64,000 nt of DNA from contig JACPKY010000002.1 in NCBI GenBank assembly GCA_016186795.1, forward strand, positions 925,892-989,891, given 5' to 3'. Numbering within the stretch: position 1 is the stretch's first letter; each line of letters opens with the position of its first letter. The translations under genes were made by a program, and so were the position numbers. This stretch comes from Candidatus Gottesmanbacteria bacterium. GTDB taxonomy: Bacteria; Patescibacteriota; Microgenomatia; 2-02-FULL-39-11. Positions 2,373-20,831 of the stretch are shown one piece after another. A model generated the notes under the pieces. The model did not search any database. It was not told where the DNA came from and saw nothing but the letters and a program-made list of their open reading frames with translations.

Positions 2373-3482
2373 ATGCATTTCTTAGTACTGAAAGAAAATA
2401 TCCAAAAGATATTGACAATTGCAGGTAGAAATATTTCGAATAGACCACAACTTCCTATTCTTTCAAATATTCTTCTTAAAACAGAAAACGGAAAACTTAC
2501 CCTTGCAGTAACAAATCTCGAAATAGGGGTGATTTTCACTATCCCAGCAAAAATTGAAAAAGAAGGAGAAACAACCATTCCAGGGAAACTTCTGACCGAA
2601 TTCGTTTCACTTCTTTCAGCTGAAAAAATAGAGTTTTTATTGGAGGGGACAAATCTTCGCGTACTAACAAATAAAACAAAAGCGTCATTTTCAACAACTC
2701 CCCCAGCAGATTTTCCGCCGTTTCCGAAACCCCCAGAGATAAAAAATATGTTTTCATTTACAAAAATAAAAGACGCACTCACACATACAGTATTTGCAGC
2801 ATCACTTGACGAAGGAAGACCTGTTTTAACCGGAGTGAAAACTGTTGTTTCTAATGGGAAACTTACTCTCTCGGCAACCGACGGATACCGGTTATCGATG
2901 GAAAACGTTGATATTCCCGATAAAAAAGAAGAATTTACCCTGATACTTCCCTCCCAAACATTAACAGAAGTTATGCGTATTGCAGCTGATTTGAAAGTTG
3001 AGGATGTCGGATTTTCAATTATTGAAAATAAAAATCAAGCAGTGTTTACTTTTCCACAGGTTCATGTTTTTACTCGCCTTATTGATGGAGAATTTCCAAA
3101 CGTTGAGAAAATTATTCCAACCATGTTTAAAACAAAAGTGACGGTTGGGAGAGAGGAGCTTTTGCAATCGGTAAAAACAGCATCACTTTTTGCGCGTAGT
3201 GCTGCCAATATTGTGAAGGTAAAAGTTGAAAAAGAAGGTTTACGATTAAGCGCCGTAACTCCGCAGATTGGTGAGGATGAAGATTTCATTGAAACAAAGG
3301 TTGAGGGAGAGGAGGGAGAAATAGCGTTTAACTACCGGTTCCTTATGGATCTTCTCAATAATTTCCCCGAAGAAGAAGTGGTGTTTGAGATGTCTGGACC
3401 ACTTAATCCTGGGGTATTTAAACCCGCATCCGGAAAATCACCATTTCTTCATATTATCATGCCTGTCCGGATACAATCGTAA
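2373..3482 (+). CDS. dnaN: DNA polymerase III beta sliding clamp
   Basis: 369 aa, three-domain clamp architecture, typical N-terminus LTIAGRNISNRPQLPILSNILL, directly downstream of dnaA. Confidence 0.9.
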   Translation: MHFLVLKENIQKILTIAGRNISNRPQLPILSNILLKTENGKLTLAVTNLEIGVIFTIPAKIEKEGETTIPGKLLTEFVSLLSAEKIEFLLEGTNLRVLTNKTKASFSTTPPADFPPFPKPPEIKNMFSFTKIKDALTHTVFAASLDEGRPVLTGVKTVVSNGKLTLSATDGYRLSMENVDIPDKKEEFTLILPSQTLTEVMRIAADLKVEDVGFSIIENKNQAVFTFPQVHVFTRLIDGEFPNVEKIIPTMFKTKVTVGREELLQSVKTASLFARSAANIVKVKVEKEGLRLSAVTPQIGEDEDFIETKVEGEEGEIAFNYRFLMDLLNNFPEEEVVFEMSGPLNPGVFKPASGKSPFLHIIMPVRIQS

Positions 3483-3491
3483 CAACATTTC

Positions 3492-4949
3492 TCAACGAAG
3501 CGTTACTTGTTGATTTGGCGAAAGATAGGTTTGGGTAAACACCGTCCACTCGGCCTCTTTTGGTGAAGTACGAAGTAAAAATGCGCTTTCAAACGTATTC
3601 CAGTTTGAGGATTGGACTGAGGAGATAATTTCTGGGTCAGAGTACGTGTTGCTACTAAAAAGAGACGTTCCTCCTATAACAAGGAGAAATGGGAGAAGAA
3701 CAGCTCCGCTAACAATTCCACCAATGACAAACTTTAACACTTGATCACTAAGACCTCCTGATAAGAAACTAAGAATATCTTTCGCAAGGAGTGCTTCTCC
3801 TAATCCAGGAATCGCTTTTCCAGCAAGATTTGCAAGCTTGCCTAATTTCCCACCAAGACGTCCAAGTTTTGACAACATTGAGCCTTCTTTTCCAAGCCCA
3901 AGGAAAGAGCCTACTCTCTGACCAGCCTCTCTGAAAGCACCGCCGAGGCCTGACTGCGAGATTCCAGATGAGATTGGGTTTATAAATGAGGATATTCGAG
4001 ATTGAATATTTGCTATGAAATCCGACCATCCTTTTTGTAGATTGGCGATAAAAGGGTTTTTTGTAGGTGCTGGACGTGCCACCGGAGGTGGATGAGCGGT
4101 TGGTGCTGGATGAGTAGTGGTTGTCGGTTGTCCGCCTTGGGGTTGTTGTGGTTGATTGGGGGGCGGAGGACCCTTTTTTGGTGATGGATATTCTCGCTTC
4201 AATGTTTCTTTCACCTTTAGTCTTGCCATGTCCATTTTCGCGTTTTCAACGTTTCTGACGTTTTGTGTTTTGGCAACAAACTGAGAACCTTTTTCTTCAT
4301 CCAATGTTTTTACTCGTTCAGCAACAAGCTTCTCTTTCTCTTTTTTGGGCAGATTTTTTGTCGTTGGGTCTTTTTCAATACCATCGACAACTTGTTTTTG
4401 GAGGAATTGTTTTCTTGCTTCAGTTCGCATCGCTTCTTGGAGAGAAATCCCTTCTTCTTTTGCGGTTTTTAGTGCACTTTCTGTTACTTTTTTCATTTGC
4501 TCATCTGAGAATCCATAGACTGACCTCATTCCTTCTGAATAGGATGGAGCAGATGTTTTTCGAATATTGTCTTTTTCGCTATCAAAAATAGTAATCGTTT
4601 TTAGTGCTCGTTTTGCTTTAGCAACTTCTTCCTTTTTATTTTTACCTCGCTGAAGGATTCGTCCGTATCGATCGTGAAGTTGGACGCCGCGAATGACTCG
4701 TTGTCGATATAGTGGATCTTTGAGAAGTTTTTCAGGGTCAATATTTTCAAGAAGTTTTCCTGCGTCGTGAATTTCTAGTCCATGGGTTGCAGCTCCAAAT
4801 GAGGTGGCTAGAAGAGCGAGACCTGAAATTTTGTTTTGCTCACCAAACCCCGATTGCATTGCCTCAATTTGTGCAATTTCCCAGTCAGTTAAGCCTTTAT
4901 ACTCTTCCTGTTCTTGTTCTGACTGTGCTTGTGGAGGTGTTGCAGACAT
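3492..4949 (-). CDS. Hypothetical C-terminally membrane-anchored protein (coiled-coil N-terminal domain, PPPP/QPQ linker, Gly-rich region, one TM helix); last gene of the T4SS-like operon
   Basis: Composition and hydrophobic C-terminal segment (VIGGIVSGAVLLPFLLVIGG). Co-directional and contiguous with the VirB4-like gene. No recognisable catalytic motif. Confidence 0.45.
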   Translation of the reverse strand: MSATPPQAQSEQEQEEYKGLTDWEIAQIEAMQSGFGEQNKISGLALLATSFGAATHGLEIHDAGKLLENIDPEKLLKDPLYRQRVIRGVQLHDRYGRILQRGKNKKEEVAKAKRALKTITIFDSEKDNIRKTSAPSYSEGMRSVYGFSDEQMKKVTESALKTAKEEGISLQEAMRTEARKQFLQKQVVDGIEKDPTTKNLPKKEKEKLVAERVKTLDEEKGSQFVAKTQNVRNVENAKMDMARLKVKETLKREYPSPKKGPPPPNQPQQPQGGQPTTTTHPAPTAHPPPVARPAPTKNPFIANLQKGWSDFIANIQSRISSFINPISSGISQSGLGGAFREAGQRVGSFLGLGKEGSMLSKLGRLGGKLGKLANLAGKAIPGLGEALLAKDILSFLSGGLSDQVLKFVIGGIVSGAVLLPFLLVIGGTSLFSSNTYSDPEIISSVQSSNWNTFESAFLLRTSPKEAEWTVFTQTYLSPNQQVTLR

Positions 4950-5003
4950 AAGGAATCTTTTTGTTTATTTTATTATACGCTGAAATACTAGAGATGCTCA
5001 AAC

Positions 5004-7070
5004 TTATGGAGTCGATGGTGTTGGAGAGGTTATAGGTGCAGGTGACGCTTGACTTGGTTCTGGTTTAGTTGGCGGTGGAGATTGTGGGAATTGGACGTTA
5101 CTTTCAAGCGTTACAGATGATTGTAACGATTGAGGTTCAGAAGTTTGTTGAGTTTCATAGGATGTTTCTTGAGTTTCCTGAGGTTTGGATGTAGCAAGAT
5201 GATGTTCCTCAGATGAAGCAATGACTTGTATAGCAGCATGGGCAGTTCCGGCAAAGAAGAGTCCTTCTCCGACGTTTGCAGAAAGCAAGAAATGCTTTTC
5301 ACCACTTGAGAGGTAGAATACCTCAGCAAGTTTATCTATCGCTGCAGACGATTGTTTAAGGAGGATTTGTAAACTGGAATTGGTGATGATTGCTTTCCCA
5401 TGATCGGTTGAGAGAAAATCTTCCACATCCTGAGTGATGGTTGTTACCCCCAAGAAATATTTTCTTGCCCGTTTGGCAATGCCATAGAGAAAGGTTGCAG
5501 AGTCTGGGTGTTTCATAAGATACCACGCCTCATCAACAACGAGGATACGCTTCTTAACCGACCGTTTTATCTTGGTCCAGATAGAGTCTAGAATAATATA
5601 CATTGCAATTGGACGAAGCTCTTCCTCAAGTTCACGGATGGAAAAAACAGTTAAACGATTTTTCAAGTTCAGATTGGACTGTTGGTTAAATATTCCCGCA
5701 AGGCTTCCTTTGACGAATTTTTCCAACCGTTCCGCTAAATGTTTTGCCGTTTCTTCCTCCATTCCAAGGAGTGTTTTATATAAATCTTCAATAAGGGGCG
5801 GTTCATTTTTTTGCGTTGCCGGATCTGGAGTAATACCTTTCTGTTTGTAGGTAAGGACGAGCGCTCGATCAAGGAGAGCATCTTCCGCAGGGGTCAGTTG
5901 CCCCATGACGACTCGCATCAGGCCGTGGAGGGAAAGAATTTTTAGTCCTAATTCATTTTCTCCCTCCTCAAAAATTCCCGAAAGGTCGAAAGGGTTAATT
6001 TTTACAGGAGAAGTAAAGGAAAATTCAATAAGTTCTCCACCAAGAGCGCGTGTTAGCTCCTTGTATTCACCTTCAGGATCGATAATAAACACCTCTGTTC
6101 CAAAAAGAAGATGCCGCATCGTTTCAAGTTTGACAAGAAAACTTTTTCCGCCACCAGATTTACCAAAGACTACTGAGTTTGAGTTTTCCAAACTAAAGCG
6201 GTCAAAAATAACCAAACTTCCATCATGTTCGTTAATACCGTATAAAATTCCTTCGTTGGCAGTAAGAGATGCTGTTGTAAAGGGAAACGTCGTTGCAAGA
6301 GATGTAGTATCCATGTTTCTGGAAATCCCAAGCTTGTCAACCCCCATGGGGAGTGTTGAGTGGAAACCATCTTCTTGGGAAAGTGTTGCGTGTTTTGGGA
6401 TAATGAGGAGCGCTCCAAGACTTGATTCAACTTCCTTTGAAATGCGGCTTAATTCCTCCATTGATTCTCCTGGAATAGTGACATAGAGACTAAATTGGAA
6501 AAAACGTTCAGCGCCTTTTGCAAGTTGCGCCTGAAGCGCAAGGGCATCATCAAGGGCTACTTGAACCGAAGGATCAACAACTTTCCCCCTCTTCATGTCG
6601 GTTTGGACCGTTGCCTCCATCTCGGCAATTTTCCGCTTCAGATCTTCAAGGATAACTTTTGACTCCGTCGGATAACAAAACATTGAGATAAAAAGGGAAT
6701 GGTCAAACGAGAGAATCGGATGGAGCCAATTTGCTGAAACAAACCGCGGATAGCCCGCGACAAAAAGAGTGCGGTAATAACTATTATTTATTCGAATATT
6801 GTCAAAATCTACCTCAACAAGAGATGGAGCAATGAGGTCTTTAATATTCACCATTCCTTTGGCGAGTGTTTTTGCTGCGTCACGGAGTTTCGTATTCTGC
6901 GCTTGTCCTACCGTTCCTACGACGTGACTTACAGCGTGAGGAGTAGTAGAGTGTGAAACAGGTGGGACATGTGAAGTAATAGGTTTTTGTACAGATCCAC
7001 TCTGAATTGGATGCGGCAGTTGTGTTGTTTGAGTCGGTTGTGGTTTTTTGGAGAAAAACGGCAAATTCAT
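5004..7070 (-). CDS. VirB4/TraE/PrgJ-like type IV secretion (conjugation) ATPase
   Basis: Walker A VVFGKSGGGKSFLVK, Walker B ILVVDEAW, length and domain order of VirB4/CagE/TrbE-family ATPases. About 110-aa Pro/His/Thr/Ser-rich N-terminal leader. Confidence 0.8.
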   Translation of the reverse strand: MNLPFFSKKPQPTQTTQLPHPIQSGSVQKPITSHVPPVSHSTTPHAVSHVVGTVGQAQNTKLRDAAKTLAKGMVNIKDLIAPSLVEVDFDNIRINNSYYRTLFVAGYPRFVSANWLHPILSFDHSLFISMFCYPTESKVILEDLKRKIAEMEATVQTDMKRGKVVDPSVQVALDDALALQAQLAKGAERFFQFSLYVTIPGESMEELSRISKEVESSLGALLIIPKHATLSQEDGFHSTLPMGVDKLGISRNMDTTSLATTFPFTTASLTANEGILYGINEHDGSLVIFDRFSLENSNSVVFGKSGGGKSFLVKLETMRHLLFGTEVFIIDPEGEYKELTRALGGELIEFSFTSPVKINPFDLSGIFEEGENELGLKILSLHGLMRVVMGQLTPAEDALLDRALVLTYKQKGITPDPATQKNEPPLIEDLYKTLLGMEEETAKHLAERLEKFVKGSLAGIFNQQSNLNLKNRLTVFSIRELEEELRPIAMYIILDSIWTKIKRSVKKRILVVDEAWYLMKHPDSATFLYGIAKRARKYFLGVTTITQDVEDFLSTDHGKAIITNSSLQILLKQSSAAIDKLAEVFYLSSGEKHFLLSANVGEGLFFAGTAHAAIQVIASSEEHHLATSKPQETQETSYETQQTSEPQSLQSSVTLESNVQFPQSPPPTKPEPSQASPAPITSPTPSTP

Positions 7071-7747
7071 TATGTAATCCTTCCTAATCCTTCAACGAGC
7101 GGTTTGCCGTATCCTGAAATTTCTCCCAATTTTTCACCTGTCATTGTTGGGTTGTAGAGGTTGTAGAAGATCTCGACAAGCTCTTGTGTCGTAAGTTGTC
7201 TTCCTCGTAGCCCAAACCGATTCAACTGTCGTAGTAAATGATCACGTTTCGGCAAAAGTGATGTTTTTGCACGAGAAAGGATATAGTCTTTGGAAAAAGG
7301 AAGTTTTTTCTTCTTTCCAAATGCCCCTTTTACTCCCAGTTCTAAACTTGAGAAGGAGATGACGATATAAAATCTTTTTTCCAATACTCGGTTTTCTTTG
7401 ACAATTGAGAGGATAAATTCCTTATACCGACGAAGCCTTTCTTTCAAAATAACGTCAACTTGAGTTTCTTCGACCTGAGTTATCAGCTCAATATACGAAG
7501 AAATATCCATCCGCTTGGAAAGAATGACAATTTGAAGAGGAAAAGAGAGAGAGTTCAAAAGCGATGCATAGGCGTAAATAAGCGCATCCTGCTCATCTTC
7601 AGAAAGAAGGCCAAAGTTTACCGCAGTTGTTTCGACAAGAAGCGCCGCGGATCCATCTTGAAGTATAAGAATATCATCGGCGATATCCTCTATTCCTAAA
7701 AAATCTTGTGTTGTTGCTCGAATTGGACTGGAGGTTGGTTGTGCCAT
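7070..7747 (-). CDS. VirB4 N-terminal-domain-like protein (possible split-off N-terminal module of the conjugative ATPase)
   Basis: DFLGIEDIADDILILQDGSAALLVETTAVNFGLLSEDEQDALIYAYASLLNSLSFPLQIVILSKR resembles the conserved N-terminal region of Gram-positive VirB4 homologues. Its stop overlaps the ATPase start (ATGA). Confidence 0.45.
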   Translation of the reverse strand: MAQPTSSPIRATTQDFLGIEDIADDILILQDGSAALLVETTAVNFGLLSEDEQDALIYAYASLLNSLSFPLQIVILSKRMDISSYIELITQVEETQVDVILKERLRRYKEFILSIVKENRVLEKRFYIVISFSSLELGVKGAFGKKKKLPFSKDYILSRAKTSLLPKRDHLLRQLNRFGLRGRQLTTQELVEIFYNLYNPTMTGEKLGEISGYGKPLVEGLGRIT

Positions 7748-7815: not shown

Positions 7816-9123
7816 TTACGAATTTACGCTCCCAAATAGTTCTTTTGTGAGTTTTTCGCGCATGAGTTCACGTTCACCCTTTGCCAGGATTTCAATTGGA
7901 GGGAAAATGTTCCCCGAAAGAGTAATTTCAGCGATATCAAAAAAGTACCGCTTCAACGGATCTTCCATTTCCAAATGATATACGCCGTTTGACAATGGGG
8001 TTGCAGTAGAAAACTGGCCAAGCTTATTGGTTTTAAGTGCCCGAAGCGGTGTTCCGTTTTTGTCTTTAATGGTGACAATAATATTGGGAAGGAATTTTTT
8101 CTGCGGATCCTGAATGATCCCCACAATCATATTTGGGTATTGAGGGAAAGTCGCACCGATTTCTTTGGCTGTTGACGTTTGGGCGATCGTTTGGATTGTT
8201 GGTGGTTTTACCTCTTTCAACGCTGTTGGTGTCACAACTTCTGGCTGTTTGAGTTTTGCCAATTCTTCATGGAGACGTTTCAGTTCATTTTCTAGCGCCT
8301 CTTTCTCTTTTGCAATTTGATCCCACTTTTTTTGATAATTTTCCTTCCCCACCATAGGTGCAGTGTTTGTTAGAGGTGGTGAAACAGGATGTGTTTGGGC
8401 AATTGGTGTGGTACCGGCAGATGCAGGGACAGGAGGTTCTTGTGAAGGTTTTTGAGGTGTGGTATTTGGCGATGGCGCAATTGTGCTCTTTTGGGGTGAT
8501 GGACCGATAGGTACGTTTGATTGCAGTTTTTGACTAGGTGCTGAAAGAATTGTTTTGGGGACAGCATGTATTTGGTGAGGTACGGTGTGTGGTCGGCTAG
8601 CAATAACTGTATGAGTGCTGGAAGTGTTGGTATGAGGTTGTGGACCAAAAAGAGAAAGCGTATTTTCAAGATATTTTTTTTCAGCAAGGTTGAGATTTTC
8701 GTGTGGTTTTGAAGGGACAGTTGCCAGATACGCGGCTAGTTTTGATTTCGCTTCATTATGCTGAATGAGGTGTGTTGTGTTTGTGACCTGAATTCTGACA
8801 ACCGATGGTTGAGAAAACATATCGGCAATGATACTTTCCTTATGCCAGAGGTATTGTGTTGGAGAGAAGATGCTTCGTATGAAAGCCAAAAGCCATTTAT
8901 CAAGCGGTCGTTCCTGAATTGGGAGAAACGCAAATGCGACACCGCAAAACCCAAACAGGGCAGCGAGGGGAATATTTATAATCTGTGGAAGCGGTGAGAG
9001 ACGAAAGGTGACATACGCGATGAATGCGCCGCCGGCAAGATATCCGAATTGCCGAAGCGTCATGTCACCGATGAGGTGAAACTCAAAACTTGAAATGTTT
9101 CGAGGGACAGGATGTTGCTCCAT
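7816..9123 (-). CDS. PrgI-family (VirB3-like) membrane protein with a long C-terminal extension (Pro-rich linker, coiled coil, beta-sandwich-like domain)
   Basis: N-terminus FEFHLIGDMTLRQFGYLAGGAFIAYVTF...PLDKWLLAFIRSIF with two hydrophobic helices matches the PrgI-family pattern. First gene of the operon with VirB4. Confidence 0.5.
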   Translation of the reverse strand: MEQHPVPRNISSFEFHLIGDMTLRQFGYLAGGAFIAYVTFRLSPLPQIINIPLAALFGFCGVAFAFLPIQERPLDKWLLAFIRSIFSPTQYLWHKESIIADMFSQPSVVRIQVTNTTHLIQHNEAKSKLAAYLATVPSKPHENLNLAEKKYLENTLSLFGPQPHTNTSSTHTVIASRPHTVPHQIHAVPKTILSAPSQKLQSNVPIGPSPQKSTIAPSPNTTPQKPSQEPPVPASAGTTPIAQTHPVSPPLTNTAPMVGKENYQKKWDQIAKEKEALENELKRLHEELAKLKQPEVVTPTALKEVKPPTIQTIAQTSTAKEIGATFPQYPNMIVGIIQDPQKKFLPNIIVTIKDKNGTPLRALKTNKLGQFSTATPLSNGVYHLEMEDPLKRYFFDIAEITLSGNIFPPIEILAKGERELMREKLTKELFGSVNS

Positions 9124-9282: not shown

Positions 9283-12200
9283 ATGGCGGGAAGCCTTATT
9301 AATTTTACGCGCTATTTTAGAAGAGGGAGCAAGAATAATACTCCAAGCGATACTCCTGTTCAAGCAGATGCACATGCAAATGTTTCTCAAGAATTACCCA
9401 CAGAAACAAGCACTGTTCCTCAACCACATACGGCATCGTCAGTAGCCTATTCTGGAATTGGTAACCCGCCGGGTGGTATCTCCTACTCAGGTATTGGGAA
9501 TCCTCCAGCTCCTGCGTCGGCTGTAGGGAAAGGTCAGGTAACTTCTGCAATTGACAGTGGAAAACGTGTTGGTATGGATGTCCTGTCAAGACTTACCCAA
9601 CGGGCAAATCAATCACTCATGGCAAGTGTGACCAAAGCGAAAGAGTTAAAAATTCAGTACGTTGATACAGAGCACGTTCTCTGGGGGCTTCTCCACGATA
9701 GCAGTATTTACCAGCTTTTGTCTGAATGTAAAATTACTCCAAGTGAGCTGCAGGCTGAACTTGAGAAGGCATTTACATCAGGCAACTTTTCCGGACAACC
9801 TCATTTTTCCCCGAGAGTGAAACGAGTGTTGGAGCTTTCCCTATCTGCCGCGCGCTCGCTTGGGTACGAGTTTATTTCTCCGGAGCATATTCTCTTGGCT
9901 TTATCCCATGAGGGGGAAGGAGTGGCAGCGCGGATGCTTATTAAATACTCGCTCACGCAAGAGGTTCTAAATCAGAAGATAACAGGGAAGAAAGATCTGG
10001 AAAAGCAGGAAGAGCAGAAAAAAACTTCTGCCCTTGATGATTATACAGAAGATTTGACGGCAAAAGCCGTGCAAGGTCAGCTCGATCCTGTTGTCGGGCG
10101 AAGCGCCGAGATTGAAAGGATCGTTCATATTCTTTCAAGAAGAACCAAGAATAATCCGGTTCTTATTGGAGATGCCGGGGTAGGGAAAACAGCAATTGTA
10201 GAAGGTTTAGCACTTCGGATTGCCCACGGTGATGTCCCTGAGACGCTTCTTCATAAACGGATACTTCTCCTTGATCTCATGTCTTTGATTGCAGGGGCAA
10301 AACATAGAGGAGAGTTTGAGGAGCGGTTAAAAAATCTTATAAAAGAAGTAAAGGCGGCAACAGGCGCAATTATTCTTTTTGTCGATGAGATGCACAATAT
10401 GGTTGGTGCGGGAGGAAGCGGTGAGGGGACAATGGATGCGTCAAATATATTAAAACCATCTCTTGCTCGGGGTGAACTACAGGTTATTGGTACGACAACA
10501 ATAACAGAGTACCGTACGCATATCGAAAAGGATCCAGCTCTTGAAAGACGATTCCAGCCGGTGTATGTCGCAGAACCAACTGCTGAAGTAGCAATTGAGA
10601 TGCTTACTGCTCTTCGAGATAAGTACGAAGCGTTTCATAGGGTAAAAATATCTGATGAGGCAATTGAGGCAGCTGTCAGACTCTCGCAACGCTACATTGG
10701 TGACAGATTTCTTCCAGATAAAGCGGTCGACCTTATTGATGAGGGTGCTGCTGCCGTTCGCTTACCTTCAATTTCTCTTCCTGAAGAAATAAAATCGTTA
10801 GAAGATCGCCTTAAAAAACTTGAAAGTGAGAAAAGTGAAGCCGAAAAACTAGGCGATAGCGTCCATCTCGAGAGTCTTAAAAAAGAAGAGGAAGAACTTC
10901 GTGAACACGAAAAAAACCTTCAAGAGCAGTATCAACTGAAAAAATCAACCACAACGAATGCTGTTACCCCTGCAATTATTGCTGATATTATTTCCCGATG
11001 GACAGGTATTCCAGTTTCCCGGCTTACCGAGAGCGAGTCAACGAAACTGTTGGAATTAGAGGGGACTATTCATAAACGACTTATCAATCAGGAGGAGGCG
11101 GTCGTTGCTGTTTCTGAGGCAGTACGGCGTGGAAGGGCGGGACTGAAATCGAACAAGCGTCCAATCGGTAGTTTTGTCTTTCTGGGGCCAACTGGGGTTG
11201 GAAAAACTGAGCTCGCCAAAGCGTTGGCCGAAATTCTATTTGGAAGTGATGAAATGATTGTTCGGCTTGATATGACTGAGTATATGGAGAAGCACGAGGT
11301 GGCAAAACTCATTGGGGCTCCTCCAGGATATGTTGGGTATGAGGAAGGTGGGCAGCTGACTGAGGCAGTGAGACGGCATCCTTACTCTGTTGTCTTATTT
11401 GATGAAATCGAAAAAGCACACCCTGACGTATTCAATATTCTCATACAACTTCTCGATGACGGTCGTTTAACCGATAACAAAGGGCATACGATTTCATTTA
11501 AAAATACAATTGTCATTTGTACGTCAAATTTGGGAAGCGGCATCATTCAAGAGGAAATGTTGGGATGGAAGGAAAATGATCAGATAAAAGATAACGGTAA
11601 ACAGAAAACAGAAATATTTCAGACGTATGCGATTTCTCCAACCGGAAGGGAAATTGTAACTCTTGACGGGGATTATTGGGAGAAAGATGGGAAAGGCCAG
11701 TGGAAGAAAGGATCGCTTGTTGAGTATTTTGCTGGCTCAACGCTATCAAACGGCCAAGACACATTTCCTGTTGAAGGTTTTGACACACATACAATTTCTC
11801 AAGACGGTTCAGAAACGATTACAAGCGGTGACTCTCTTTGGTTTCGTACTTCAACAACGGTACGGGAATGGAGCATAGAAAAACTCGTGCCTTACTTCAA
11901 AAATCACATTGTTATAAACGCCAAACCCGATAAACCAGAGGAACAATTACCAACGGTGCGGATAGATTCCCATGCCCTCTCCCCTACCAACGAGGAAATT
12001 GTGACGTATGAGGGGCGGTTTTGGAAAAGGCAAAATCTTGCCTCAAAAGATTGGATGACCGGAGACATTTCTGAGTATTTTGCAAATTGCAAAGTGGAGA
12101 CCTCCACGGAAGAAAAACAAAAAGCAGCTGGAACTGGAAAAGGAGGGAATTTGATTACCAAAATGTCGCAAGAGAAACCTCAACAAGACGTATTCCCGAT

Positions 12201-13251
12201 AGACAAGTGGGATAGCCATCTCTTTACCCCGCTTGGAGAAGAAATCATTATTTCTAAGGGAAAGTACTGGAAGAGAAAATCGGCAGATGTTACGGTATGG
12301 AATATGGGCAACATTTCTGATCTTTTTTCTAAGGATAGAATGGTGGGAGATGTACCAATTGGGAGAGAGAAAGAAGAAGCAAAAGTTGGTAACAGTGCGT
12401 CTGATGACCAGTTTCAAAAACTTTCAAAGAGACTCATGGAGGAACTGCGGAAATTCTTCCGTCCTGAACTTCTGAACCGTTTTGATGAAGTCGTTGTTTT
12501 CCGTCCGCTAACCCGAGATCACATGCTGGAGATTGTCGGACTTCAGGTGAAGCTACTTTCAAAACTCCTTACCGAGCAAAATATTGCAATAGAAGTCAGC
12601 CACGACGCTTCGGTGTATCTATCCAAAGTAGGGTACGATCAAGTATTTGGCGCAAGACCTTTGAGAAGAATAATTCAACGCTTGGTTGAAAATCCTATTT
12701 CCTCGCTTCTTATTAAAGGCGAATTAGCAAGTGGGGGTCGCGTGCATGTGACATATGAAGGTGACCAACTTCAGTTTCAGATCCAAAAAATAGAAATGAA
12801 AAATGCTCAAACTCCTTCTCCGACAGTTGTCGATGAAAAGCGGCAACCTCTCCAAACCAGTCAACCGACACTTCAATCTCCGAAGCCGCTGGAGGAGAAA
12901 GTGTCCTACGGTTGCCAAAACTGCGGGCATACATGGGAAGAAGCAAAAAGTACGCATAGTTTGGTCTGCCCTGACTGCGGGAGTGAACTTATTTCACAAA
13001 AGGCCGAGTCTAGTACCTCTCAAGGGCCAGAACCATCAAAAGAAGAGAAACAAAATCCCCTTGAGATGTACTATCAACCGACAGATCAGGCAAAGAATGA
13101 CGTCTCACCTACACCCGTTTCCAAAGATTCCTCCTCAAGCGGCGTCTCAGGTTGCAGATACTCCCCCTTTTACGCGTTCCTTTCCCAAAGAGAGAAGAAA
13201 AAGGAGACTAAGGTATACAAGGCTGTTAAAACCGGTCATGAGAAAAAGTGA
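9283..13251 (+). CDS. ClpC/ClpB-like double-ring AAA+ unfoldase with an atypical roughly 300-aa insertion in D2 and a C-terminal C4 zinc ribbon
   Basis: Clp N-domain, D1 Walker [16 protein letters not shown] and Walker B LFVDEMH, short ClpC-like middle domain, D2 Walker [16 protein letters not shown], sensor region [15 protein letters not shown]. Alternative start at 9574 (M of MDVLSRL); the upstream 97 codons carry a GNPP tandem repeat. Confidence 0.85.
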
Positions 13252-13872
13252 AAGGGCAAAAAACTGGAATACTTCATCTGTCACAAGAAGAAACGTATTG
13301 GGGAAAACGACTCTTAATCCTGTTTGAGAAAGAAAAAGGAAGAGAATGATAATGATTGGTCCGGCAATAATAAGGCTCTCAACATCTTTTTTACTTGAAA
13401 ACATTGTCATCGATGTAACAAATAATAGATAACAAAGAATAGGTAACAGAACGAAAGAATACTGATTGGTTGTTATCCAGGAGAGGTTCACAAAAAATAT
13501 TTTTCCAAGAAAATAAATGAATGACAATCCCATAAGTATTGGTGCAAGACCAACAATTGCGTGTCTAAAAGGATCAACTTTTGCAATCATGAGCTTCCCA
13601 GCCCGAATCGTTCCATCTTTTTCGATTGTGGGAAAGATAGAAAGTTCGCCAGTTGGTACAAAAAGGATAAGAGCTACAAAAAAATGAGACAGCTCATGGA
13701 TGATGGTTCCCGGCAAAAGCACTATCGTGACAGCAAAAAGAGCCGCAGTTTTACTTCGTGTAGCAAGATATGCAAGAAGGTAGATAAAAGTAGATATTTT
13801 TTTAGAAAGGACAAAAAGGCAAAGTAGGAAGAGTATCGAAAGTATAATGTAGAAATAGAAAGGCAACGACAT
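13147..13872 (-). CDS. Polytopic membrane protein with HExxH motif (IIHELSHFF) in a TM helix; putative intramembrane zinc metalloprotease (site-2-protease-like)
   Basis: 6-7 hydrophobic segments with HELSH inside a helix. No clear second LDG motif, so family assignment is tentative. Confidence 0.4.
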
Positions 13873-15521
13873 TAACGTTCTCTTTCCTGAGTCTCCCGAG
13901 GTCCACCTGTGTCAAAGACGCTCAGTCCCATCGGGATCATCCCAATACCCATGAGAATTCCTAAGAAAGCCCCATCTGAGAGTCCCCGCTGCTTGGCCAT
14001 CTCTGCAATCTGAGCAGGAGTGACACTAAGGAGTCTTCTTAATGTGCCAATCTGCTTGTTATCAATATTAGCTCCCTGTGCAATTGTGGCTGTTCGATCG
14101 GTAACAAACTTAATGGGATTTTTCATAACATCTCTATCGAGACCTAGCTCAGTCTGGAAGAAAGAGGTTACTCCTGCGAGTTTATGACCGCGGAGAAGAG
14201 CTCGAACAAATCCCACTTCATGGGGATTTAATCCACCTTGATGAGATGCGCCAAGAAGGAGACCCTCGATACGTTCGGAAAGATTAGGATCTCGCGGATC
14301 TATCGAGTCAAGAGCGTGCTGGATACCATTCATGTACAAGAGGGTTGATTCCATCCGGATTTCACCGTTTTCGATCCGCTGGAGTGTTTGAGTGGCAAAC
14401 GCTTGCTCGGCAGGTGTATCGTCATAGAGGGCGCGAATGAGAATTTCCGTCTGTTGGTGGAGCGGGTCGTTTCCTTCGGTTTGGTAATAGAGAATATTTT
14501 CATTCATCTCGGCTCCGAGTTGGGTGATAGTTTCAACGGATAAATGCGCAGCGTGTCCTTGTGGAGAAAGTATAGCTTGCGTTGCACGAGTTACTCTGGC
14601 TGCAAAATTATCAATATTTCCGCTTCCGGATGTAAGGGCGTTTTCCAAGACGGAAGTCCAGAGCCCTACGACAAAAAGTTGCTGGTCTCCAGCTGGATCT
14701 TTCCCAAGTCCGGCGTAATATTCAGTAACAGCCTTGATTGCATGGTATGCTGTTGCCTTTACTTTTTCTCCCCGAGCTTTTACTGCTTCAGCCGATTGGG
14801 CTTCTGGAGTAGGTGGAGTAGCTGCCTTGTCTTCTCCTCCTTGGATCATAAATCGCATTTTCACTTTTGCGTTCGGATCCTCATCCGGTTTTAATCCACA
14901 GAGTTTCTGTTTTGCAGCAAGACGTCTGGCAAATCGTGTATGGGGGTCTACTTTTGCATCATCCCGGAATTGTTCCAAAGGAAACATCCCTTTGGCTTCA
15001 TTATCAACCATGTCATCCCATGCTCGGAGAGACATCGGTTTTGTAACCGTTCCATCGGCAAGAGTGACAACAACTTCTGTGCCGTCAAGGAGGCCACTGC
15101 GTGTTTCAACCGAAGAATCATGATGAGCTTTTTGCTCTGGAATTGCACTTCCGTGCGTTTGTGCTGCAATCCATTCGAGATTATCGATTGATGCAGGGTA
15201 GACGGATGATTGTAATAGTACACGATCATCATCAGTTGGTTTCTCCTTTTTCCTAAACGTGTTCATTGTGCTTTGGGCCTGTTCCATATTTTCCTCATGA
15301 AGCTCAAGAAGCTTTGCGAGGCCATCTCTTTCTGTATCTTGGGCTGTTGATAGTTTTTTTCCTAATTCAGCTGCACTTTCTGCTCGGTATGGTTCACCTT
15401 TAAAAAGAAGAAAACTTGCCTCTCTGGTAAGGTGCTGGCAATCTGTGGGTACAAGCGGTTTAACGGGAAAAGATTCTGGTTTTAATGTGACGATTTCTAG
15501 TGGAGCAGGAGCTGCTTGCAT
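13872..15521 (-). CDS. Hypothetical 549-aa protein with C-terminal TM anchor
   Basis: Long ORF with coding-like composition, GC-elevated, divergent from the giant repeat protein. No recognised domain. Confidence 0.45.
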   Translation of the reverse strand: MQAAPAPLEIVTLKPESFPVKPLVPTDCQHLTREASFLLFKGEPYRAESAAELGKKLSTAQDTERDGLAKLLELHEENMEQAQSTMNTFRKKEKPTDDDRVLLQSSVYPASIDNLEWIAAQTHGSAIPEQKAHHDSSVETRSGLLDGTEVVVTLADGTVTKPMSLRAWDDMVDNEAKGMFPLEQFRDDAKVDPHTRFARRLAAKQKLCGLKPDEDPNAKVKMRFMIQGGEDKAATPPTPEAQSAEAVKARGEKVKATAYHAIKAVTEYYAGLGKDPAGDQQLFVVGLWTSVLENALTSGSGNIDNFAARVTRATQAILSPQGHAAHLSVETITQLGAEMNENILYYQTEGNDPLHQQTEILIRALYDDTPAEQAFATQTLQRIENGEIRMESTLLYMNGIQHALDSIDPRDPNLSERIEGLLLGASHQGGLNPHEVGFVRALLRGHKLAGVTSFFQTELGLDRDVMKNPIKFVTDRTATIAQGANIDNKQIGTLRRLLSVTPAQIAEMAKQRGLSDGAFLGILMGIGMIPMGLSVFDTGGPRETQERER

Positions 15522-15611: not shown

Positions 15612-18600
15612 ATGAGTTCTTCTTCTGCCGATGCTATTCATCACCAACCATTTCCTGCAACCGTTGCTGAATCGGTTCCTTCAACTCCTGTTAATCAGGT
15701 TAATCAGGCTGGTTGGCAAACTGCCGAACCTCAACGACCTCAATTTGGTGCATATGAGAGAGGACGTATTGTTCCAGGAGCCAATCGGGAAGCCGGAGTT
15801 ACTCCCCATACCGTTGTTGAGCTTGGTCTTGATACCGAACTTGAGCTTTTTGATTCTCTCGAGGAAATAGTAAGTTTCCTTGATAAGTCCGATAATAAAG
15901 ATGCTCTTTCTCTCCTCTCAGAGGTTATGAAGGAAAAAATGGTTGATTTAAGAGACAGGGCTGCCGCTCTTTCCTTGGAGAGGAAAGATATCGAGGAACG
16001 GAAAGCAATTGAGGAAGAGTATGAAGAGGCTGTTAGACAAACAGCAAGACAACGGTTAGGTTTTAACTATGAGGCGAGAAATCGGACAACACGAGATGAT
16101 AAGTTGAAAAAACTGAATAAAAAGATTGAGAGGCGAAGAAAGGCAATTGAGGAATACAACAAAACGAGACCTGGAGAGACTCCTACACCTGGTGAAAAAC
16201 CAAAAAAAGTACCAAGAGAGCTTGAAGAGCTTATCAGTGATCATAATCTTGGATTAAGCGATTTAACTCCTGAAGACCTCAAGACCCGATTAGAAGCATA
16301 CCTTAAAAAAGACAGAAAGCCTTTGCAGATATTTGATAACCTCACCGATGTCATGCAAGCGTATTCCTTCCTTGAGAGTGCGGAGAAGATTGTTGCACTT
16401 CAAGCAGGACAAGATATTACCGATGGTGGGAGAAGACCTGTTGAGTTTGATTTTTCGGATGCAACAATTAATCGGGTAGCTCAAGCCGGGGTTCCAAACA
16501 CAACGGTGCAAGCACTCCGCGACATTGGGAGAAGAATCCGGATTGGAGATGTATTCGGAGTACAAGAGCTAATTGCAGGATTGTCGGTTGGGACCGTTGA
16601 AGCTCTCATGAATGCGCATAATTTTTGGCCTGCTCCAGGTGATGCTGCCCAAGCCGGTGCAGCGTTTGCCTTGGGAGTTGGGAGTATGCTATTTGTACGA
16701 GCAGTAGGTCGAAGAATGAACCATTGGCGCCTATCTTTTCCTCCGGAACGAGCTGAACAGAGAACTCAATATACGCTACAGTTTCACTTCATTCAACCTC
16801 CGCCCGGGGATGGAGGGAATCCTTTGCGACGAATGTACGGTGGTGATGCACGCCGAGCCGAACAATTCCTACAAGCAATTGATAATGTTCGTGTCGACAT
16901 TGCTAATAAACTAAAAGTCCATCCAGGACAGCTGGAGGGGTGGCTAAATTTAAGTAGTGCTGCATTAGGTGAGAGCGTTGAGGGGATGGAATTTCCTCAT
17001 CGAGTTGTCCTTGCTAAGAATATCGAACAAATATTGGCTCAAGAACATCGGAATGCGACTGGTGGCCATATACCGCTTGAGGAGTTATCAGCTGAGGAGC
17101 AGATTGAGGTTATTGAACGGGCGTTTGATGGAGTTGCACTTGCCATTGGCGGGGAAGCTATGGATGATGTAACTAAAAATGCGGCGATACGAAGAATGAT
17201 GGGAGAAGTTAATTGGGCTCAGCGGAGAAACGTTCTTGCAACTCATGTTGCAGAAATCCGGGCAGGAACACGCGTCTACCATGCAAGCGTGACTCCTCAC
17301 GCTTTAGAAGAAGCAAGGACACAGTTTGAGGCAGCAGAAAAGCAGGAAGCGCGACAATCTCAGGGGAAAGACGCATACGGAGCAAAATATACTGAGCTTC
17401 AAAATCAGTTGAGAACCTTGGAAACAGCGCGAATTGAGCTTGAAAATATTTCGACAATCAACGGTCATATTACAAGAGACGTTACAGTGAAGGGGAGAAA
17501 AGTTCATGAAGATGCAAGCGGAGAGATAGGGGTACTTGAGGCTGAAAAAACAAGGATTGATGGAGAAATTACGAAGCTTAAGGGTGAAATTGATGCAACA
17601 AATGCAAATGGACTGGAGGGTCAGTATAAACAAGCAAAACGCCGCTATGAAACGCTCCATGGGAAAGTTGAGGCTCTAAAAAGTAAGAAGCAAGCGGCGC
17701 AAGCAGAGATTGATACCCTTCAACGGGGAAGAGATAGAGCGAAAGCTGCAAAAATTGCTCAGTGGGAATCTATTCGAGATCAGGCAGAGCAGAATTTAAC
17801 AACTGCGCCATCTGGGCAAAAGACTCTGGAGGAACAGGAAGATGATGCATATTTAGCCTTTGTGCCACTCAAAGATCAGTATGAGCCAAAAACGGCAGAA
17901 GTTGGACGATTACAACAAAGGCAGAATGCAATCCCTGGTGAGATTCAAGCATTTGAGAGGGCAATTGCAGAGAAAGAGAAACTCTATCGAGTAGCTCAAT
18001 TGAATTATACTCTTGCCCAAAAAGAAGTACTTACTATTCTTCAGGATTTTGGATACAAATACACACCTGCTCAGTTGAGGAGTAGCTCACTTCGACTCCC
18101 CACGTCGCAAATGATTACTGACAAGTATACAGAACTCCATGTCGAGTATCAGGTGAAACAGAATCGTCTTACGGAGTTGGTAAGGCTTGCTGAGGCGGGA
18201 GTTAGTGAAGAAGATCTTCGGATTGCAACGCTTATTGAAACACTCTCAGGTGTTGTTGGTTCAGATCGTCTTAATAGTTTTATGCAGCAGCTTCTTTCCC
18301 GAGGGATAAAGTTGGAGGATCTTGCCAACACACAAAACAACGAGGGATATCACCTCATGTTAAAGTTCTTTTTCGGTGAGGATGCACTCACTCAAGGGAA
18401 GGACGGGAAGTATGCTCGAGCAACGACACTTCTAAGTAAAGCTCGATTATGTGATGAAGCTTTCAAAATCTGGCGCATCGATGATCGGGCATCAGGCGAT
18501 GGGTTTTTTGCAGGAGATGATGAAGGTCTACAACTATATCAGAATGCTCGTTTTATTTTTGAAACCAATAGAAGACTCACTCAGGAAGTTTTTAACCTTG

Positions 18601-20831
18601 AAAATGCAGTTGGGCAAACCCCTGCAACAATTGCTCTTATTGAACGGCGCCGAAGAGAAATTGCTGCAAACGAGGTAAAACGAAATGAAACGCTAAGTCA
18701 ACTTTACGATTCTCGTATCGCTCCTCTACTTTCTCTAGATAGAGTAAGAACCGGAATGGTTGTCATGCAGACGTTCCAAAAGCTTTCTGATGATGCGCTC
18801 AATGGATTTGTTGAACTAACTCCATCACCATCTGGGGCTCATGAAGAACTGGTGACTACTTCAGCCGGCCGAATGGTGATTACCGAGGCAAGCCACGACA
18901 CACTTACGCGAACAGTGATCGAACGTGGGGCGCTTAAAACTGAAAACATCGAAGGCGTGCCAGGGGTATCTATTGAGATGCATGTGACATCACTTGGTAC
19001 TCCAGGAAGACTTGATACGACAGTTGTTCTTGATCGTGATCAAGGAGTGGGTGATCGGATTGCAAATAGAAATTCCGCAGATACACCGGATGAAATCAGA
19101 TATATTTTCCATGGTGAGCCAAATAGACGGAGAGAATTTGTTGATACTGCAGCATTTACCGATGACTTATGGAATCTTTTGCCTGACCAAAGAGGAGATG
19201 CGAGACGTTTAGGAGTACCAAACGAATTTCTTGATTGGGTATATGGGGTGAATAGTTCTGGGGGTACTCCGAAGCGGCCTGTTGCAGAACTTCGCACATC
19301 GGCAATCAATATGTCCAATATGCCCGATGTACGGGGAAACTTCCGAGGTGTACCTTTGGAAATGCAGGACTTTTTTTACTACTACGATGATGCACGGAGA
19401 AGAGCAACTGTTGACTTAAACACAGTGACGGATGATGTTATAGCCGATATTGGCCCAGCCGATCGTCGTGGGGCTCTTGCTTCTGGTTTGCCTCAAGAGT
19501 TTGTCGATTTATTCTATAACCTTGATACGCCGGGAACTGTCAGATCTCTTGCCGATGTTCAAACGGCACTTGGTACAGTTACCGATGCAATGCTACAAAA
19601 TCTTCCTGATAGTAGAGTTGATGCGCTTAGTGAGGGATATCCGCAGCAATTTGTTGATTTTTTCTACGGCTCGGATATTCCTGGCGGGAAAAGGACCGTT
19701 ACTGCTTTGGAAAACATGGCAGGGACTGCAACCCTTGATGCTACTCAGTTTCCATCAACAGCTCAAATGGCTCGGAATATGGGGTGGTCAAATGACGTTG
19801 TGAATTTACTGTATGATCAGGCAAGCGGAGATTTACTCGATGATGATGGACTTACTGATCTTCTAGAAAATCGTGCACAGGATTTACTTAATGTGATGGG
19901 TCCGGCTGATCGAAATGCAGCTGTCGGGATGCCACAAAGTCTTATTGATATCGTCTATGCAGAAAATCAGCCAGGTAGAAAAAGGGTGGCTGCAAACGTA
20001 CGAGCCGATGCAGGAACTATCACTCCTGCACTTCTTGGCGCACTTCCTGCCGATCGACAGGGTGCACGGACTGAAGATTATCCCGATGAGATTGTTAGAC
20101 TTTTTTACGAAGCAGACAGAGCAGGGACGAAAAGAAACTTAGCAGAAGTTCAAGCGGCTTTACCGGGAGCTGCATTTCGTATCGATCAACTTCCTGAACT
20201 TGGGAATGCTTTAATCAATGGAGGTATTTTAGGTACAGATGCCTGGAGGTTTTTTTACAACCAAGTGACCGATATTAGACGGACAAATAGAAGTATCGAC
20301 GTATTTATCGAAGGACTTCCGGATGACCGTGTCAATGCACCTCCAGGGTTTGGGACTGCTTTAGACGTTCTCTATGATGCGACATCAGGGAAGAAGAGAA
20401 GTCTCCAAGATCTCCGAAAAATTCCACTCCATCGACAAGGGACATTTGGACGTGTCGAGTCACTTCTTGATAATCTTGGGATGGGTCCCATCGTTTATGA
20501 CCAGTTTGCCCAAGAAATTACCATGGGTGTTGCACAGATGGATGCTGTATCTCAGTCGAGACTTCTTGGAGACAGATTCCAGGAAGTTGTTGCTGGGAAT
20601 TTTCGAGTATACCTCATGAATGGTCAGTTGGGGATATATTTCCGTGATCCTCCCGATCCTGCGCTTCCAGAAAGAGTATCACATCGAATGTCGCTTCATC
20701 AATTTATCCAGGCCGATACCTACCCTCCAGAAGTCGGTGCCTATCTTACTCAAAATCCCGGAATAAAACGCGGAATTCTCATTAATACCGCACCGGCAAT
20801 TATTGAAGCTGTTCGAAATATATCGGTATAA
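15612..20831 (+). CDS. Giant 1739-aa protein: coiled-coil-rich N-terminal two thirds, one probable TM segment (about aa 340-365), C-terminal array of about nine tandem repeats of roughly 46 aa (LPxxRxxA..G.PxEFVDxFY...PGxKR)
   Basis: Uninterrupted ORF. Repeat units read directly between about 19180 and 20430. Composition GC-elevated (about 50%) versus the flanks. Confidence 0.6.
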   Translation: MSSSSADAIHHQPFPATVAESVPSTPVNQVNQAGWQTAEPQRPQFGAYERGRIVPGANREAGVTPHTVVELGLDTELELFDSLEEIVSFLDKSDNKDALSLLSEVMKEKMVDLRDRAAALSLERKDIEERKAIEEEYEEAVRQTARQRLGFNYEARNRTTRDDKLKKLNKKIERRRKAIEEYNKTRPGETPTPGEKPKKVPRELEELISDHNLGLSDLTPEDLKTRLEAYLKKDRKPLQIFDNLTDVMQAYSFLESAEKIVALQAGQDITDGGRRPVEFDFSDATINRVAQAGVPNTTVQALRDIGRRIRIGDVFGVQELIAGLSVGTVEALMNAHNFWPAPGDAAQAGAAFALGVGSMLFVRAVGRRMNHWRLSFPPERAEQRTQYTLQFHFIQPPPGDGGNPLRRMYGGDARRAEQFLQAIDNVRVDIANKLKVHPGQLEGWLNLSSAALGESVEGMEFPHRVVLAKNIEQILAQEHRNATGGHIPLEELSAEEQIEVIERAFDGVALAIGGEAMDDVTKNAAIRRMMGEVNWAQRRNVLATHVAEIRAGTRVYHASVTPHALEEARTQFEAAEKQEARQSQGKDAYGAKYTELQNQLRTLETARIELENISTINGHITRDVTVKGRKVHEDASGEIGVLEAEKTRIDGEITKLKGEIDATNANGLEGQYKQAKRRYETLHGKVEALKSKKQAAQAEIDTLQRGRDRAKAAKIAQWESIRDQAEQNLTTAPSGQKTLEEQEDDAYLAFVPLKDQYEPKTAEVGRLQQRQNAIPGEIQAFERAIAEKEKLYRVAQLNYTLAQKEVLTILQDFGYKYTPAQLRSSSLRLPTSQMITDKYTELHVEYQVKQNRLTELVRLAEAGVSEEDLRIATLIETLSGVVGSDRLNSFMQQLLSRGIKLEDLANTQNNEGYHLMLKFFFGEDALTQGKDGKYARATTLLSKARLCDEAFKIWRIDDRASGDGFFAGDDEGLQLYQNARFIFETNRRLTQEVFNLENAVGQTPATIALIERRRREIAANEVKRNETLSQLYDSRIAPLLSLDRVRTGMVVMQTFQKLSDDALNGFVELTPSPSGAHEELVTTSAGRMVITEASHDTLTRTVIERGALKTENIEGVPGVSIEMHVTSLGTPGRLDTTVVLDRDQGVGDRIANRNSADTPDEIRYIFHGEPNRRREFVDTAAFTDDLWNLLPDQRGDARRLGVPNEFLDWVYGVNSSGGTPKRPVAELRTSAINMSNMPDVRGNFRGVPLEMQDFFYYYDDARRRATVDLNTVTDDVIADIGPADRRGALASGLPQEFVDLFYNLDTPGTVRSLADVQTALGTVTDAMLQNLPDSRVDALSEGYPQQFVDFFYGSDIPGGKRTVTALENMAGTATLDATQFPSTAQMARNMGWSNDVVNLLYDQASGDLLDDDGLTDLLENRAQDLLNVMGPADRNAAVGMPQSLIDIVYAENQPGRKRVAANVRADAGTITPALLGALPADRQGARTEDYPDEIVRLFYEADRAGTKRNLAEVQAALPGAAFRIDQLPELGNALINGGILGTDAWRFFYNQVTDIRRTNRSIDVFIEGLPDDRVNAPPGFGTALDVLYDATSGKKRSLQDLRKIPLHRQGTFGRVESLLDNLGMGPIVYDQFAQEITMGVAQMDAVSQSRLLGDRFQEVVAGNFRVYLMNGQLGIYFRDPPDPALPERVSHRMSLHQFIQADTYPPEVGAYLTQNPGIKRGILINTAPAIIEAVRNISV

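Follow-up and report, generated by a model that had tools for sequence, protein, structure and literature searches.

The Patescibacteria (or candidate phyla radiation, CPR) type IV secretion system (T4SS) has recently been described by Quiñonero-Coronel et al. (2025, Microb Genom; PMC12102498). These authors place TrsD beside VirB4, near dnaA, across the Patescibacteria. They count 2,272 TrsD homologues, more than for any other T4SS component found in the group, and associate 1,664 of them with VirB4; they describe TrsD as remotely homologous to the VirB4 N-terminus, whose domain is summarised as binding VirB3. PrgI/VirB3 homologues accompany TrsD, the cluster lies near dnaA and dnaN in Microgenomatia and Paceibacteria, and a TrsD homologue is essential in Candidatus Southlakia epibionticum. 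Here we have analysed a window of 64,000 nucleotides (nt) from a Candidatus Gottesmanbacteria bacterium (contig JACPKY010000002.1, positions 925,892 to 989,891; all coordinates below are those of the window unless a related locus is named). It contains two adjacent genes, which we call A and B, encoding products of 225 and 688 amino acids (aa) respectively. A first-pass annotation had taken these to be a VirB4 ATPase split into two translationally coupled open reading frames (ORFs), and had offered a genuine two-subunit VirB4, a programmed frameshift and a recent pseudogenising frameshift as explanations. The reading that best fits the data, to which we give a probability of roughly 0.87, is that the locus is the standard core of a Patescibacteria T4SS (a PrgI/VirB3-like protein, a TrsD-like protein and the VirB4 ATPase) and that A and B are two independently translated genes.

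The locus of the window follows the published pattern closely. There is a virB4 gene with adjacent genes for TrsD and PrgI/VirB3 homologues, the TrsD-like gene being directly upstream of virB4; the cluster is chromosomal, with dnaA and dnaN near; no relaxase is found nearby; and the host is a member of the Microgenomates. Nothing essential separates the two. A hypervariable leader, long tails and fused TrsD-VirB4 proteins are not mentioned in the sections of PMC12102498 used here. The arrangement of TrsD and VirB4 in this genome is already known from that work, and is real but ordinary. To it we add that A and B are explicitly collinear and complementary, that a conserved peptide stands before a hypervariable leader, and that the two genes appear to have been re-fused repeatedly in relatives of Amesbacteria. 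In Guglielmini et al. (2014; PMC4027160) the main text makes no mention of TrsD, and neither TrsD nor a split VirB4 is mentioned in the 2025 nomenclature review of the T4SS (PMC12857230).

The plasmid systems of pSK41 and pGO1 (the pGO1 subclass of MPF-FATA) have the gene order TrsC, TrsD (227 aa), TrsE (672 aa) and then the membrane protein TrsF. TrsC occupies the same slot as the PrgI-like gene of the window, and TrsE is without positions 1-182 of the fused-VirB4 profile, much as the product of gene B is without the first ~170. However, the plasmid system is conjugative and has a relaxase and a coupling protein, whereas that of the window is chromosomal and neither was found among the genes called within ~8 kb either side of the pair. 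A is a remote relative of pSK41 TrsD and by the NCBI criterion not a member of its family (28.8 vs 200 bits). There are 14 nt between trsD and trsE, and TrsE has no long leader: according to the model used, its profile match begins at residue 9 or 30.

Genes A and B as parts of VirB4

ORF calling confirms both ORFs, on the minus strand, with the lengths and positions first annotated (Table 1). The 225 aa product of A had been proposed to carry the N-terminal segment of VirB4, and this is borne out by three NCBIfam models: NF045975 (the Mbov_0397 family, VirB4 of mycoplasma integrative and conjugative elements; positions 129-235, E 3.6e-9), NF045971 (the CD1110 VirB4 model; positions 15-123, E 1.4e-3) and the TrsD/TraD model NF041427 (E 9.4e-7, 28.8 bits against a curated cut-off of 200 bits). 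The family profile of A matches pSK41 TrsD over aa 12-200 (hhalign probability 96.3%, E 2e-9), and a protein identical to A (P0001) has a precomputed match to PF26593, TraC-like, at E<=1e-5. The public record identical to A is hypothetical protein HYW55_06000 of Candidatus Gottesmanbacteria. The first annotation recognised the VirB4 N-terminus in this protein but missed both its relation to TrsD/TraD (PF26593) and the arrangement that PMC12102498 gives as the norm for Patescibacteria.

In size (TrsD-type proteins are ~200-230 aa), solubility and homology to the N-terminal part of VirB4, A fits the description of a TrsD-type protein, and there is no hydrophobic segment in its 225 aa. The gene is directly upstream of that for a VirB4-type ATPase and downstream of that for a VirB3-like protein, the same order as in pSK41. 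There are 4021 homologues of A at E<=1e-3, which excludes a chance ORF; the best 120 of them are stand-alone proteins of 219-240 aa.

The AlphaFold2 (AF2) model of A is good (predicted local distance difference test score, pLDDT, 82; predicted template modelling score, pTM, 0.73). In a fold comparison its ten best matches in the PDB are all TrwK/VirB4 of R388 (7O42, 7O43, 8RTB, 8RTD), the sole fold family matched, with a probability of 0.98-1.0. TrwK, however, belongs to a diderm system and is a single polypeptide, and the matches have an identity of 11-14% and template modelling (TM) scores of 0.31-0.45. A phmmer search of A against the PDB sequences gave nothing relevant; VirB4 was found only by fold comparison of the AF2 model. 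From these matches we conclude that A is the first domain of a Gram-positive-type VirB4, detached from the rest and made as a separate polypeptide.

Gene B is the remainder of VirB4, that is, the second N-terminal subdomain and the RecA-like ATPase domain. Its product scores 405.3 bits against NF045971 (cut-off 325), with aa 62-610 lying on profile positions 173-730 of 752; the first ~170 profile positions are absent and no one polypeptide covers NF045971 in full. Pfam matches are to PF19044 (P-loop_TraG), AAA_10 and DUF87. There are further matches to the C-terminal domain of the Thermoanaerobacter VirB4 (4AG5; E 2.7e-43) and to pSK41 TrsE (27% identity, E 8e-48), and the Walker A and Walker B motifs are intact. 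Separately, intein and homing-endonuclease domains (PF14890, PF14528) lie within the ATPase of nine VirB4 homologues of Microgenomates, of 1158-1215 aa (P0308, P0309, P0312, P0318, P0319, P0360, P0362, P0371 and P0387).

The two products are complementary. A lies on profile positions 15-123 and B on 173-730, and when both are aligned by BLAST to a fused 904 aa protein of Ktedonobacteria, A aa 37-198 fall on residues 50-193 and B aa 76-628 on residues 273-858. Homology is therefore collinear across the junction, and the proposal that VirB4 is divided here between two adjacent, closely coupled genes holds. The fused Gram-positive-type VirB4 proteins (NF045971, CD1110; NF045975, Mbov_0397) are covered collinearly by A and B together, but they are single polypeptides of 750-900 aa, whereas in the window the first ~170 positions are a separate product. 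The 904 aa fusion of a TraC-like protein and VirB4 (L036, 4854..7565; Ktedonobacteria bacterium brp13, AP024096.1) is from the Chloroflexota, outside the Patescibacteria, and its two parts are joined by a Lys-rich linker. We also considered A as an internal duplicate of the N-terminal subdomain of B, the secondary-structure patterns being alike. This was rejected, as there is no detectable sequence relationship: the profile of A against B aa 62-293 gives an hhalign probability of 0.2%.

A search with a fused 787 aa homologue finds many proteins of 783-897 aa in Amesbacteria and relatives in which the TraC-like part and VirB4 are one polypeptide, some of them present on many contigs. Fused and split forms can be closely related. 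In one locus (L041) PrgI is followed by a fused protein of 794 aa (4001..6385), in another (L040) by proteins of 198 aa and 584 aa joined by an ATGA overlap (3408..5755), and the ATPase parts of the two are 87% identical. In a neighbour-joining (NJ) tree of the ATPase core, which has no support values, includes a few partial sequences and is indicative only, the fused forms fall in several separate clades among the split forms, with an inferred root state of split. This suggests that TrsD and VirB4 have been fused several times in relatives of Amesbacteria. Such recurrent natural fusions are Rosetta-stone evidence that A and B act as one unit.

The fusions also bear on whether A might act on its own, outside the ATPase complex, as an accessory factor of the T4SS (a chaperone or a regulator, say) that shares ancestry with the VirB4 N-terminus. 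According to PMC12102498, the TrsD homologues of Gracilibacteria have no association with virB4, and a model of A and B concatenated predicts no interface between them, as such a factor might lead one to expect. Against this, A supplies exactly the segment that B is missing, fusions recur in at least four to five clades of the NJ tree (again without support values), and in nearly all loci the two genes adjoin tightly and overlap. We regard an accessory role as improbable.

Several observations weigh against the assignment of A and B to one VirB4 unit of the Patescibacteria T4SS. A is far under the NCBI cut-off for the TrsD model, and a Pfam scan gave no match for it; its family assignment comes from profile-profile comparison and the precomputed PF26593 match. 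TrsD itself has no assigned function in any system, going by PMC12102498. The concatenated AF2 model of A and B aligns with full-length TrwK over ~890 columns (E 1e-21) and its folded parts are confident, but its pTM is 0.48 and it superposes poorly on TrwK (root-mean-square deviation ~29 Å, TM-score 0.31-0.35). The domain arrangement of TrwK is not reproduced, no A-B interface is predicted, and the relative placement of the domains cannot be trusted. At the junction (A aa 216-225 and B aa 1-71) the pLDDT is mostly <50.

The junction and its conservation among relatives

On the coding strand the junction reads ACA TAA TGA, and the TAA stop of A and the ATG of B share the single A at 7070, an overlap of 1 nt. 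The ATGA overlap described in the first-pass annotation is not what is found: the arrangement is TAATG, and the ATGA string is the ATG together with the second A-frame stop, TGA, that directly follows. The frame of B is open for merely 7 codons upstream of its own ATG, and there is no slippery heptamer of the form X XXY YYZ in the last 150 nt of A. There is a Shine-Dalgarno (SD)-like motif embedded in the end of A (Table 1), and motifs of the AGGA/AAGGAGG type are present at a comparable place in most related loci. B would be initiated at its own ATG, 7 nt past this motif. The overlap of stop and start probably couples the translation of A and B, and may help to balance the amounts of the two proteins.

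We recovered 35 genome loci, and in 32 of them the downstream neighbour of the A homologue was readable. The two genes are kept in all 32, at identities to A from 76% down to 28%, and the loci come from Gottesmanbacteria, Roizmanbacteria, other Patescibacteria and Saccharibacteria. The junction ranges from an 8-nt overlap to a 26-nt gap, with one outlier at 42 nt (L017). Most Saccharibacteria have a 4-nt ATGA overlap, and the window shares TAATG with its nearest relative; overlaps of 8 nt also occur, and in other Gottesmanbacteria there are gaps of 3-26 nt. All three relative frames of A and B (0, +1 and -1) occur. The comparison with orthologous loci that had been recommended thus finds several classes of Patescibacteria keeping two genes with their own starts, preceded by SD-like motifs in most. 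This is the result that the first-pass annotation had itself named as telling against a frameshift. These comparisons indicate that the split is ancient and conserved.

Two of the three explanations first offered fall on this evidence. One is a programmed ribosomal frameshift, or equally a bypass of the stop codon, which would yield a single full-length VirB4. The ORFs do overlap, fused homologues do exist elsewhere, and in three loci (L007, L008 and L010) both ORFs are in the same frame with one stop and a few codons between them. However, the window has no slippery heptamer, the open overlap is only 7 codons long and A ends in a double stop, TAA TGA. Among the orthologues the relative frame varies between 0, +1 and -1, and the spacers, of up to 26 nt, hold further stops, so that no single recoding mechanism could be conserved. 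In addition, B always has its own ATG, an SD-like motif and, directly after the start, a conserved N-terminal peptide. Recoding of either kind is very unlikely.

The other is that one VirB4 gene was split by a recent pseudogenising frameshift or by an error in sequencing or assembly. The overlap itself speaks for this, and nothing more. Identical A and B proteins are present on 6 contigs, three of which come from the assemblies of three sequencing runs. The split is common to relatives down to 28% identity and to pSK41. Both ORFs are strongly conserved, A being 88% and the core of B 94% identical to the nearest relative, with the Walker motifs intact. We give this explanation next to no weight. 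The identical pair on separate contigs, the age of the split and the variety of its junctions effectively exclude that a recent frameshift or an error of assembly has produced it, or that a recoding signal is conserved. The genuine two-subunit VirB4 is the only one of the three explanations to survive, with A and B complementary and the split conserved.

The low-complexity leader of VirB4

Gene B begins with the low-complexity sequence that the first annotation had reported, although its length is ~61-75 aa and not ~110. Aa 1-61 are rich in P (15%), T (13%), Q (11%), S (11%) and H (8%), and VirB4 homology resumes at residue 62 by hidden Markov model (HMM) or at residue 76 by BLAST to the fused homologue. 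Among relatives the leader varies from ~4 aa in Roizmanbacteria to ~105 aa (L010); it cannot be aligned, and its frame is always open. Against the closest relative it is poorly conserved and has in-frame indels, but the first nine residues, M-N/G-LPFFSKK, are kept. Other relatives begin with MGLPFF.K or MLPFFSKQK, and more distant Microgenomates have NLPFLKKK or LLGKKK. In the concatenated model the pLDDT of the leader is 26-41. The C-terminal tail of B (aa 623-688) is likewise entirely different in a close relative.

It might be argued that B starts at the internal M73, just before the conserved core, and that the leader is an untranslated spacer; the B proteins of Roizmanbacteria begin ~10 residues before the core, and M73 is at a comparable place. 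However, the frame of the leader is open in every relative within the Gottesmanbacteria despite turnover of sequence and length across 55-105 codons, and the differences in length from the two closest relatives are whole-codon gaps in the protein alignment. Furthermore, relatives keep the first 9 codons that follow the upstream ATG, and it is this ATG that the SD-like motif precedes. A start at M73 is very unlikely, and maintenance of the frame and the conserved start point to a leader that is translated. We read the leader as a fast-evolving spacer, predicted to be disordered and similar to others across this cluster, behind a short conserved LPFF-KK peptide, and not as the scar of a frameshift.

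Stretches rich in P, T, Q, S and H are present in products of all four genes of the cluster: in the PrgI-like protein (~aa 170-260), in the 485 aa protein encoded downstream of B (~aa 245-290), and in the leader and tail of B. As low complexity is found across the whole locus, the junction is in no way exceptional in its composition. In other lineages such sequence is placed not at the start of B but at the C-terminus of the A homologue: among other Microgenomates, many TrsD-like proteins have low-complexity C-terminal tails of 100-500 aa (for example P0121, P0142, P0172, P0219, P0240 and P0246, and the protein encoded at 3501..5648 of L044), several of which end in LPPI(A/S)EI(T/E).

The leader may have a function of its own. 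We suggest, tentatively and with considerable doubt, that the LPFF-KK peptide on its disordered leader is a functional tether, with the TrsD-like subunit, the PrgI/VirB3-like protein or the membrane as the docking partner of the ATPase. If so, the long tails on the TrsD-like proteins of other lineages may be the equivalent feature.

Gene order and significance

The features of the locus are collected in Table 1. Genes for proteins of 435, 225 (A), 688 (B) and 485 aa follow one another on the minus strand, and with dnaA and dnaN as neighbours the cluster is origin-proximal and chromosomal.

Table 1. Features of the virB4 locus and its neighbours in the window
Feature	Coordinates	Strand	Description
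Gene A	7747..7070	-	225 aa ORF; soluble TrsD/TraC-like protein; folded domain ~aa 12-200 (7714..7148)
Gene B	7070..5004	-	688 aa ORF; VirB4-type ATPase (MPF-FATA / CD1110-like)
SD-like GGAAGGA	7084..7078	-	Within the 3' end of gene A, 7 nt 5' of the gene B ATG
Junction TAATG	7072..7068	-	A stop 7072..7070; B start 7070..7068; second A-frame stop TGA 7069..7067
B N-terminal peptide MNLPFFSKK	7070..7044	-	Hydrophobic then basic; conserved in relatives
B leader, aa 10-61	7043..6888	-	P/T/Q/S/H-rich low complexity; hypervariable; predicted disordered
B conserved VirB4 core, aa 62-622	6887..5205	-	Profile match and motifs
Walker A GKSGGGKS	6164..6141	-	B aa 303-310
Walker B ILVVDEAW	5546..5523	-	B aa 509-516
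B C-terminal tail, aa 623-688	5204..5007	-	P/S/T/Q-rich low complexity
PrgI-family (VirB3-like) membrane protein gene, upstream of A	9123..7816	-	435 aa; PF12666 PrgI
Gene downstream of B	4949..3492	-	485 aa; one C-terminal hydrophobic segment and a Pro-rich stretch
dnaA	831..2195	+	Pfam annotation of the identical gene in L001
dnaN	2373..3482	+	Pfam annotation of the identical gene in L001

The PrgI match in the 435 aa protein covers aa 5-91 (Pfam, E 1.6e-10), and there is one hydrophobic segment (aa 45-71). This is followed by a long low-complexity linker and a C-terminal region that resembles a beta-sandwich, with weak matches to CarboxypepD_reg and SdrD_B at aa 333-391. The protein may present an extracellular domain on a VirB3-like anchor. 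PrgI and CarboxypepD_reg are also combined in an Amesbacteria-like relative (L040, 2623..3411). Pfam and NCBIfam scans gave no family match for the 485 aa protein. It holds the slot of TrsF in the pSK41 gene order and is at most a candidate member of the T4SS.

Divergent from the T4SS cluster there is a gene for a 1322 aa ClpC/ClpB-like AAA+ protein (9283..13251, plus strand), and the same neighbour is present in L043. Repeated segments (DG.YW.K / W..G....YF) make up a large insertion in this protein, and its C-terminus bears a CxxC...CxxC zinc-ribbon-like motif. Beyond it are ORFs of 1739 aa (15612..20831, plus strand) and 549 aa (13872..15521, minus strand), for which there is no Pfam match on record, and beside these a polytopic membrane protein of 241 aa with an HELSH motif (13147..13872, minus strand).

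Because the N-terminal domain of VirB4 binds VirB3 (as summarised in PMC12102498) and because of the gene order, we propose that A docks non-covalently on the N-terminal region of B, and probably also on the PrgI/VirB3-like protein encoded upstream. Docking of A on B would rebuild the full N-terminal module of VirB4 and so tie the ATPase hexamer to the membrane channel, with the leader perhaps acting as a flexible tether.

For annotation, the lesson is that such a pair should be labelled as a TrsD-like subunit and VirB4 and not as a frameshifted pseudogene. Few systems have been shown to be indispensable to the epibiotic way of life of these ultra-small bacteria, and the T4SS of Patescibacteria is among them, as reported for Ca. 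Southlakia epibionticum only. On our reading TrsD is no extra paralogue but complements VirB4 as its missing first domain, and it appears to have been re-fused to the ATPase several times. This gives a hypothesis for the role of TrsD, as a detachable module of VirB4 that couples it to VirB3 or to the membrane. If the leader is indeed a tether, then TrsD and VirB4, by repeatedly splitting and fusing, would have tuned the attachment of the VirB3-binding module in wall-spanning, host-dependent secretion machines.

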